From the NCBI GenBank assembly GCA_032249095.1, contig JAVVGN010000050.1:1-14339 (forward strand): 14,339 nt of DNA. Reading direction: 5' to 3'. The stretch is from Candidatus Caldarchaeales archaeon. Its GTDB lineage: Archaea; Thermoproteota; Nitrososphaeria_A; Caldarchaeales; Calditenuaceae. A program made the position numbers and the translations under genes. The notes beneath the pieces are model-generated. The model did no database searches. It was not told where the DNA came from and saw only the letters and a list, made by a program, of their open reading frames with translations. Position 1 is the stretch's first letter; each line of letters begins with the position of its first letter. Shown piece after piece: positions 6,230 to 6,565 of this stretch.

Positions 6230-6565
6230 GGGTATCCGTATAGTGTTGTCTGTCTTTTTCCCCTGAATATTGCCTCATCACCCCATAAGTCCAACTGTAT
6301 TGGTATATTTCCGTGTTCTAGTCTTAGTAGATGTTTGAGCTTAGACCTCTCCTTCCTTACCCCTCTTATCTCTTTCTCTTGTGTGTCAGGCTCTTAGTGG
6401 GTGCAGGGTTTGGGATGGCCAGATTATTTGGGCCACTACTCTTTATATGCGGAGCTGGTGGGGCTTCTTATCCGAGCAGGTGATGGGGAATGAGGGGGAT
6501 GGTGTGAGGTTCCACGTGGTGGCAAGGCCATACGAGATAGGGACTGACGGAGAGGTGTAAGGATT
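6230..6565 (+). repeat. Conserved non-coding left end (LE) of the element, copy B; candidate ncRNA/leader region
   Basis: It aligns along its whole length with 13916-14263. The blocks 6230-6320 and 6410-6540 are nearly identical. No reading frame is preserved between the copies, because a 1-nt indel near 6505 shifts all frames. Confidence 0.75.
6441..6448 (+). promoter_or_regulatory. TATA box inside the LE, predicted to drive the leader plus recombinase transcript
   Basis: ctttatat is conserved exactly in copy C (14136-14143). The predicted start is around 6470, giving a conserved ~95-nt leader that ends in SD gaggtg (6552-6557) 8 nt before the TTG at 6566. Confidence 0.5.

Follow-up and report, generated by a model that had tools for sequence, protein, structure and literature searches.

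A conserved left end of an archaeal mobile element read as decayed genes, with a candidate structured RNA at its right end

Introduction

Conservation that runs up to the ribosome-binding site of a gene and ends there raises the question of what has been retained, an RNA encoded in front of the gene or something else. This is posed by a contig of Candidatus Caldarchaeales archaeon (JAVVGN010000050.1, assembly GCA_032249095.1), analysed as one stretch of 14,339 nucleotides (nt) and hereinafter called the window. Its segment 6230-6565 is the left end of a repeat copy designated B, lies immediately before a gene, orfB, and has a twin at 13916-14263, in copy C. A sequence-only reading of the window regarded this left end as non-coding, as better conserved than the coding sequence that follows, and hence as a functional leader or guide RNA similar to the bridge RNA of IS110 elements, which in the IS110 subgroup is encoded upstream of the gene (PMC11208160). 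The evidence set out below leads us to conclude, with a probability of about 0.8, that 6230-6565 and its twin are the left module, now decayed, of an archaeal mobile element built in modules and no RNA gene, and that the likely partner RNA of orfB is encoded at 7387-7555.

Results

The similarity between the two left ends is real. According to blastn, 6230-6539 aligns with 13916-14236 at 78.2% identity over 321 nt (E 3e-69), and MAFFT alignment of the 70-nt core (6471-6540 versus 14165-14236) reproduced the five substitutions and one 1-nt indel counted earlier. The motifs ascribed to this region are likewise in place: the TATA-like CTTTATAT is identical in B (6441-6448) and C (14136-14143), GAGCTGGTG and GAGCAGGTG occupy 6452-6460 and 6474-6482, and both the palindrome CCACGTGG (6512-6519 / 14209-14216) and the TGGC..GCCA hairpin were verified. 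Identity between B and C amounts to 79% in 6230-6379, 83% in 6395-6505 and 70% in 6506-6565 (referred to below as parts I, II and III), and it does end at the Shine-Dalgarno sequence (SD), the following 76 nt being 39% identical, which is the random level. What failed is the interpretation. The label "non-coding" is contradicted by the composition of the segment, since 6214-6393 is the remnant of a minus-strand gene and 6507-6560 the tail of a plus-strand gene. Nor is the left end better conserved than homologous coding sequence when like is compared with like: in five copies carrying the same gene type its parts show 70-87% identity versus 81-86% for the first 161-300 nt of orfB, and substitutions are not concentrated in the coding part. 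The contrast seen between B and C arises because C carries a different, non-homologous cargo after the SD; this module boundary is common to B and C, and three unrelated cargoes occur beyond it.

The origin of the left end becomes apparent from its relatives. Scanning metagenomes with a pattern of the left tip gave 73 loci, which together with the window and locus L001 make up 81 copies. Mapped on the full-length reference L035, all copies appear as deletion mosaics in which three pieces are kept, namely the tip, a piece of ~75-120 nt with the TATA-like box, and the ~55 nt that adjoin the downstream gene. The tip, together with the CT-rich tract, is covered by the decayed 3′ part of a gene designated orfC (6214-6393, minus strand), which reads as a 59-codon open frame ending in KERSKLKHLLRLEHGNIPIQLDLWGDEAIFRGKRQTTLYGYPRCKT and a stop codon and carries an internal deletion relative to the intact orfC of ~204 amino acids (aa). 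Intact orfC is present in L019, L044 and L048, where the frame reads out through the apparent boundary at 6230, so that the ~20 variable bases to the left of this point are the C-terminal tail of orfC and its stop codon. Among 92 homologs the best conserved part of the protein is the C-terminal motif HxNIPIQLDLWGxEVxFRGKGQTTxYGxP, encoded by 6230-6300 on the minus strand, and the ratio of nonsynonymous to synonymous substitution rates (dN/dS) of 0.17-0.20 among intact copies indicates purifying selection. The structure model of orfC has a low predicted local distance difference test score (pLDDT 62), and its weak matches to B3 / EcoRII-N-like DNA-binding domains (E 0.025) were not relied on. 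The possibility that orfA, orfB and the right end form a simple insertion splitting orfC was rejected, the N-terminal 84 aa of orfC not being found beyond the right end.

The second piece (6395-6505, plus strand) would be a promoter and leader module, as judged from the motif and position of the TATA-like box at 6441-6448; it also contains GGTGATG (6479-6485, SD-like plus ATG), which in full-length copies is the start of the gene orfA, and it is retained in all deletion derivatives mapped on L035. Intact orfA encodes 143-167 aa, ends in ERFHIVARPYEIKTRNEGVQGC and a stop codon, overlaps the start of orfB and evolves under purifying selection (dN/dS 0.18-0.27 among intact copies). In copy B its last ~18 codons (6507-6560, plus strand) constitute the third piece, and deletion of most of the gene has left a mini open reading frame (mini-ORF) of 25 codons at 6483-6560 (MGNEGDGVRFHVVARPYEIGTDGEV and stop, plus strand). 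The palindrome CCACGTGG and the small hairpin lie within this tail, and their variants in other copies are H-I/V/L-V codon changes, synonymous or conservative. The orfA remnant is in frame in B and out of frame in C. Retention of the mini-orfA for translational coupling was considered and discarded, the frame being preserved in just 9 of 27 derivatives, which is the random expectation; the mini-ORFs of orfA are relics and no selected small protein.

Copy C is built likewise, from a frameshifted orfC remnant (13889-14092, minus strand, 67-codon open frame ending in GIEHGNIPIQLDLWGERGNIQGKRTNNTIWMPETGNVEFI and a stop) and a promoter/leader module with SD (14090-14263, plus strand) that includes CTTTATAT at 14136-14143, the out-of-frame mini-ORF at 14179-14232 and the orfA tail at 14204-14236; after the module "type 3" cargo stands in place of orfB. 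A DNA pattern of the orfA tail gave no matches among the contigs of GTDB representative genomes.

The same left end was assayed for the properties of a structured RNA. Region 6395-6570 folds with -49.4 kcal/mol, z -0.37, and 65 of 200 shuffled sequences are at least as stable. For 20 distinct copies RNAalifold returned a consensus of -5.3 kcal/mol with 12 pairs over 217 columns. Covariation in further copies, by which the RNA proposal was to be checked, came to two compensatory pairs, equal to the slid controls, with still fewer on the minus strand and in the tip. The right end of the element, taken through the same pipeline as a control (16 copies of similar divergence), gave -58.3 kcal/mol and 48 pairs. 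The covariance model R1, built on the right end, finds no match in the left end of B or C; the left end has no Rfam match at either threshold, and no nucleotide homolog of it occurs in 11 distant loci (L079-L089) from metagenome-assembled genomes (MAGs) of Nitrososphaerota, where the right end is detected. Pairing, the spread of substitutions and the shared boundary thus all speak against 6230-6565 as a functional leader, guide or bridge RNA. One part of the bridge-RNA idea stood: by structure comparison the downstream gene does fall into the IS110/TasR class, and it is 6230-6565 itself that is not such an RNA.

The candidate that does show these properties occupies 7387-7555 (plus strand), starting in the last codons of orfB and ending at CCAACCCUCUCCCCC with a T-rich run; the limit of the repeat unit follows at 7556-7572, similarity with the B1-type copies L001-L005 stopping at 7572. 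This segment folds as a long rod (minimum free energy -78.9 kcal/mol, z -5.19, none of 200 shuffles as stable) with a basal helix 7390-7399/7524-7533, an outer stem 7422-7429/7489-7496 and an inner hairpin 7448-7468. It is found by blastn in relatives with 38-54% protein identity, and the inner hairpins of distant relatives, compared by eye, differ wholly in sequence and are still paired. When 18 sequences are aligned plainly with MAFFT, the paired cells make up 96.3% and 8 of 29 pairs are compensatory, and on four of five measures none of 500 shuffles reaches the observed value. The model R1 derived from this alignment matches 7387-7555 with 167.8 bits and, elsewhere in the window, 280-461 with 31 bits (E 2.9e-7). 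In 56 distinct copies, types B2 and B1b included, 94% of cells are paired and 21 of 29 pairs are compensatory versus 4-6 for slid partners, in an alignment fitted to R1, which favours the structure. Several positions have frequent G.U and U.G pairs, and only on the plus strand, which indicates that the RNA is on the sense strand of orfB. The terminal CCAACCCCUCCCC with its T-rich run makes a plausible archaeal terminator by sequence, and Rfam yields no match at the gathering threshold or at E<=1.

Within the rod a single large internal loop is arranged as outer stem, box, 9 nt, box, inner hairpin, box, 9 nt, box, outer stem. The 9-nt window A (CCGAGCAUU, 7435-7443, plus strand) has UAUGA before it and UGAC after it on the loop's 5′ side, and the 9-nt window B (CGAGUAUAU, 7474-7482, plus strand) has UGCGA and UGAU in these places on the 3′ side. 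Over 14 close B1 copies column entropy is 1.41 bits in window A and 1.12 in window B, compared with 0.27 in the scaffold. The plan is common to types B1 and B2, where it was parsed, and to B1b, where it was recognised by eye; in L071 and L073, which share the insertion locus, a nearly identical scaffold carries entirely different windows. A third element, copy A of type B1b, is represented in the window (1-475) only by its right-end RNA (280-461, plus strand, dual-window unit 333-390) and its tip (432-451), the element body preceding the window start; the inverted repeat I2 (285-318/397-430) is the basal helix of this RNA.

The orfB of copy B (6566-7415, plus strand) is a type B1 pseudogene with frameshifts near 6880-6915 and near 7266, its blastx segments lying in shifted frames. 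Intact relatives have ~281 aa and fold as a RuvC(DEDD) domain, a coiled coil and a Nop-like domain made of helices. The family has 859 matches in a metagenome protein collection, none with a Pfam domain and mostly on contigs of 1-2 kb, as expected of repeats, which break assemblies; all relatives come from metagenomes or MAGs, and those on Nitrososphaerota MAG chromosomes belong to thermophilic archaea carrying many dispersed, decayed copies. Searches with single members returned nothing significant in Pfam, NCBIfam or PDB sequences. An AlphaFold2 model built from the alignment of 29 diverse members is confident (pLDDT 91.7), and its best full-length PDB matches by Foldseek are ISCro4, TasR and IS621 (E 1e-7 to 8e-6, template modelling (TM) score 0.60-0.66), with no useful match in a viral structure library. 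The class of the protein, which Pfam and NCBIfam do not detect, surfaced only through structure. Residues D7, D25, D49, K89 and D94 and a KSDENDA-type motif are conserved in the 29 members, five of which weakly match PF01548 (DEDD_Tnp_IS110), with a best E of 0.0098 that does not reach the cutoff; no other Pfam entry recurs among the weak matches. The family profile (alignment A3) matches the Nop domain of TasH over residues 73-223 (hmmsearch, E 2.5e-4). On the other hand, the serine-bearing sheet, which is essential in IS110 and separates IS110 recombinases from Nop5-like proteins (10.1101/2024.06.21.599552), has no counterpart here: no invariant or near-invariant serine, nor any other conserved nucleophile, is found in the C-terminal domain of the 29 members, the SG of the B1 subfamily being replaced by YN, YD or RS in others; the model contains only helices after residue 111, with no beta strand past the coiled coil; and PF02371 (IS110 C-terminal) matches no member. 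As modelled, orfB is a member of the IS110/TasR superfamily that fails a defining IS110 feature and in its make-up resembles TasR more closely.

Three continuations are observed after GAGGAGGTG, all of them following one left module and even one orfA deletion junction. The first is type B1 orfB (copy B of the window, plus strand); the second is type B2 orfB, distantly similar to B1 by eye and with a right-end RNA of the same fold class; the third, in copy C and in L061, L040 and L021, is the type 3 sequence (GGAGAGACGCCTGCCGCGGGGGCTTCGGATCGAGC, 14264-14339 in the window). Since one orfA deletion junction lies upstream of all three, cargo has been exchanged at the SD, either by homologous recombination or by a site-specific event. 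In L061 ~190 nt of type 3 is followed by a LAGLIDADG homing-endonuclease gene (PF14528, E 3e-17; L061:~600-1541). The type 3 sequence itself might be a structured RNA or an intron-like unit.

Several further arrangements were noticed around orfB. In L049, L050, L074, L078 and L014 a G+C-rich insert of 1-1.4 kb takes the place of orfA between left end and orfB; it contains overlapping, spurious-looking ORFs only, has no Rfam match and is possibly a large structured RNA or some other passenger. A different gene precedes orfB in L079, L081, L082, L083 and L086, its stop codon overlapping the orfB ATG (TAGATG); an SPPY-like motif in this gene of L083 and L086 hints at a DNA methyltransferase, but Pfam returns no match. 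Deletion derivatives among the distant relatives likewise retain just the orfB-adjacent part of the upstream gene. In L090-L092 intact orfC ends a co-directional cluster with a ResIII/DEAD helicase, several orphan ORFs of 42-111 aa and a 192-aa ORF. In appearance this cluster is an integrated virus or plasmid, from which the left module is likely to have come.

In the adjacent DNA, 6099-6207 is a separate repeat of ~105 nt. Its ends are inverted (TAGTGTCCAAATAA), it has a TATA-like box inside, and GACGCCCcttgagaGGGCGT makes a hairpin resembling a terminator. At least 16 loci contain the repeat, with 79-91% identity, often adjoining the elements described here and in either orientation; it could be a miniature inverted-repeat transposable element or a small RNA gene. 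The JGI metagenome contig Ga0187840_10000166 (L052) is 99.2-99.8% identical to window positions 6100-6229 and 7573-9000, the neighbouring HflX-like GTPase gene included, and has the copy-B element too, so that it derives from the same or a very close strain.

Discussion

The observations may be accommodated in the following scheme. One ancestral deletion removed most of orfA from the left module, and the pieces left behind would supply a promoter and an SD by which whichever cargo follows is transcribed and translated. The right-end RNA may be cut from the orfB transcript, in a layout resembling that of TnpB omega-RNA, and be bound by a coiled-coil dimer of the RuvC-coiled coil-Nop protein; its two 9-nt windows would then be presented to the two strands of a DNA target, as those of stem-loop tigRNAs are for TasR. 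By this analogy a guide function is proposed for the RNA, and the outcome could be cleavage, binding or recombination, IS110-type strand exchange being disfavoured by the missing serine.

A number of points weigh against this explanation. Part III (6506-6565) is retained in all derivatives even though the frame is kept in 9 of 27; it is kept by something other than coding, and the cause could be a role in starting translation of the cargo, use as a site of recombination, or simply that all derivatives go back to a single deleted ancestor. Promoter, transcript ends and RNA processing are predictions from sequence. The detailed fold of the right end is unsettled, since its three conserved CCGG segments admit two alternative pairings, both with compensatory changes (the second, CAUACCGGC/GCCGGUAUG, was seen by eye only and not counted). 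Its boxes (UAUGA/UGAC-UAAC, GGUC/UUCC, GGGCU/UAAUC) differ from the CNA/YG sets of stem-loop TIGR (TIGRFinder). A tandem array is absent from the window (TRF), with one unit per gene in the right ends inspected. A search of 0.52 Mb of collected sequence for 18-mer targets composed of window pairs brought no target that convinces: there was one match of 17/18, the rest being at chance level. That match joins the L071 windows, taken as A plus the reverse complement of B (L071:1694-1760), with L064:4051-4068 at the 3′ end of a ferredoxin-like gene; the same windows match the ferredoxin-like gene at 15/18 in L073 (L073:2760; cf. window position 9170), where ~420 nt separate the site from the same element. 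On a rough estimate ~0.03 matches of 17/18 are expected by chance, so that the one obtained serves as a lead only and could be chance. Comparison of 7-mers between the 22-nt left flank and the element body gave no consistent guide-like position, the "variable flank" being the C-terminal tail of orfC, and 7-mers shared by the right-end RNA and the flanks of orfB cassettes were confined to the recurrent GGCCATA and GCAGGGAT, with no copy-specific guide-target pairs.

Other explanations have to be set against the decayed module. The idea of a bridge-like RNA, guide or leader, that is encoded by 6230-6565 ahead of the recombinase and under selection could draw on the IS110/TasR fold of the downstream protein, on the upstream position of the bridge RNA in the IS110 subgroup (PMC11208160) and on the retention of parts II and III in all deletion derivatives, even out of frame; we nevertheless hold it to be highly improbable, as the fold is no more stable than that of shuffled sequence (z -0.37), consensus structure is hardly present and compensatory change is not in excess, distant relatives keep orfB and the right end and lack the left, the same module also precedes LAGLIDADG-linked cargo, and the sequence derives from two genes under purifying selection. 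Far more serious, though still rather doubtful, is the proposal that part III with the SD (~6506-6565), besides being an expression signal, is a site-specific attachment or exchange site for cassettes of orfB plus right end and for other selfish genes. The common orfA deletion junction upstream of B1, B2 and type 3 means that the exchange of cargo came later than the deletion and took place precisely at the SD, the conserved unit in distant relatives begins ~7 nt before the orfB ATG, and the motif GCAGGGAT(A), complementary to the right-end 3′ strand, is found at both start and stop of B1 orfB. Yet no pair of empty and occupied sites was found, the right flanks of the cassettes do not continue into type 3 sequence, and ordinary homologous recombination between elements with a common left module would look alike.

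As to the right end, its structure might act as DNA, or as a terminator or mRNA stabiliser, and not as a guide RNA; a long imperfect palindrome followed by a T-rich run has this appearance, and the reverse strand also scores with R1, at a much lower level. The restriction of frequent G.U and U.G pairs to the plus strand and the co-occurrence with a protein of RNA-binding fold make such a role improbable, and a terminator or DNA hairpin does not predict two hypervariable 9-nt windows in a fixed scaffold. Slightly better placed, and still unlikely, is an IS1111-like bridge/seek-RNA recombinase in which the RNA guides the recombination that moves the element. The fold matches IS621 and ISCro4 as well as TasR, PF01548 is the one recurrent weak match, copies are many, often decayed and on short broken contigs, and the position of the RNA, at the right end, is that seen in IS1111-type elements. 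Against it stand the lack of a conserved serine or other nucleophile in the C-terminal domain and of modelled beta strands past the coiled coil, where IS110 has its essential serine-bearing sheet (10.1101/2024.06.21.599552), a single dual-window loop in the RNA instead of two loops, and the failure to find a match between RNA segments and flanks.

Reading the left end as a decayed module is in itself an ordinary result, which illustrates that an element end that is conserved and taken for "non-coding" can be pieced together from decayed genes and that a sharp drop of similarity at an SD can reflect cargo exchange and not selection on RNA. The right end carries the wider interest: more than 850 metagenomic proteins without Pfam or NCBIfam annotation have the fold of RNA-guided IS110/TasR enzymes and are accompanied by a covarying 3′ RNA. 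Our tentative suggestion, which we ourselves place below even odds, is that the orfB family with its 3′ RNA forms an archaeal, chromosome-invading branch of the IS110/TIGR-Tas/Nop5 assemblage, with a single C/D-like RNA bearing two reprogrammable 9-nt guides and a protein which, guided by the RNA, would cleave DNA, bind it or promote homing; such a branch would be an extant form intermediate between bridge recombinases and Nop5-C/D. Should the RNA indeed guide the protein, thermophiles would have provided a compact DNA-targeting system that is programmable by RNA. The literature consulted has no description of it in this form (archaeal, chromosomal and multi-copy, DEDD plus Nop without serine, a single 3′ unit overlapping the ORF); the TIGRSafari catalogue, with its 20,096 tas loci, may include the family already.

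Comparison with known systems

The analogy with the omega-RNA of TnpB/IscB (OMEGA) concerns layout only: the right-end RNA starts inside the 3′ end of orfB and runs to the right end of the element, and non-autonomous, decayed copies are many in both cases, but the fold of orfB is unrelated to TnpB/IscB, and the OMEGA guide lies outside the element end whereas the 9-nt windows are internal. With IS621 and ISCro4 orfB shares the overall fold (TM 0.60-0.64) and a KSDENDA-type motif in the DEDD domain, and with IS110/IS1111 elements in general (PMC11208160) the multi-copy state and a structured RNA candidate adjoining the gene at the element end. It differs from them in having neither a conserved catalytic serine nor a predicted C-terminal beta-sheet, in reaching the threshold for neither PF01548 nor PF02371, in a single dual-window loop where bridge RNA has a target loop and a donor loop, and in the lack of guide-flank complementarity in k-mer searches.

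The likeness to TIGR-Tas is closer. The compact ~281-aa orfB combines, as TasR does, a coiled coil and a Nop-like domain of helices with a RuvC domain whose acidic residues are conserved; its model has a TM score of 0.65-0.66 to 9mty, and the family profile matches the Nop domain of TasH. Stem-loop tigRNAs have two 9-nt spacers, box C/D motifs and flanking stems (PMC12045711; bioRxiv 10.64898/2026.09.09.750476), a geometry repeated in the stem-box-9 nt-box-hairpin-box-9 nt-box-stem order of the right-end unit, and both systems are hosted by mobile elements. The differences are the single unit instead of a tandem array, its embedding in a ~170-nt rod overlapping the ORF end, boxes unlike the published CNA/YG sets, the weak DEDD_Tnp_IS110 matches of orfB's N-terminal domain, and also the hosts, which for orfB are thermophilic archaeal chromosomes with many dispersed, decayed copies.

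Archaeal C/D small RNAs (sRNAs) and their protein Nop5 offer the third comparison. The right-end RNA is pseudo-symmetric in the manner of a C/D sRNA, with two short candidate guides flanked by boxes and stems, but lacks RUGAUGA/CUGA boxes and an Rfam C/D match, and archaeal C/D sRNAs keep a spacing of ~12 nt as opposed to windows of 9 nt. Nop5 has the same order of domains, RuvC-like, coiled coil and Nop (10.1101/2024.06.21.599552), and likewise an archaeal host; the acidic RuvC residues conserved in orfB are lost in Nop5, and Nop5 is a housekeeping protein whereas orfB is selfish and multi-copy. Of an archaeal IS110 Rec clade of this kind Vaysset et al. inferred either that it is extinct or that Nop5 comes from a more ancient ancestor. 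If the RNA guides the protein, the orfB family would add an archaeal data point on how the Nop5-C/D machinery of RNA methylation is related to IS110 recombinases and to TIGR-Tas effectors.

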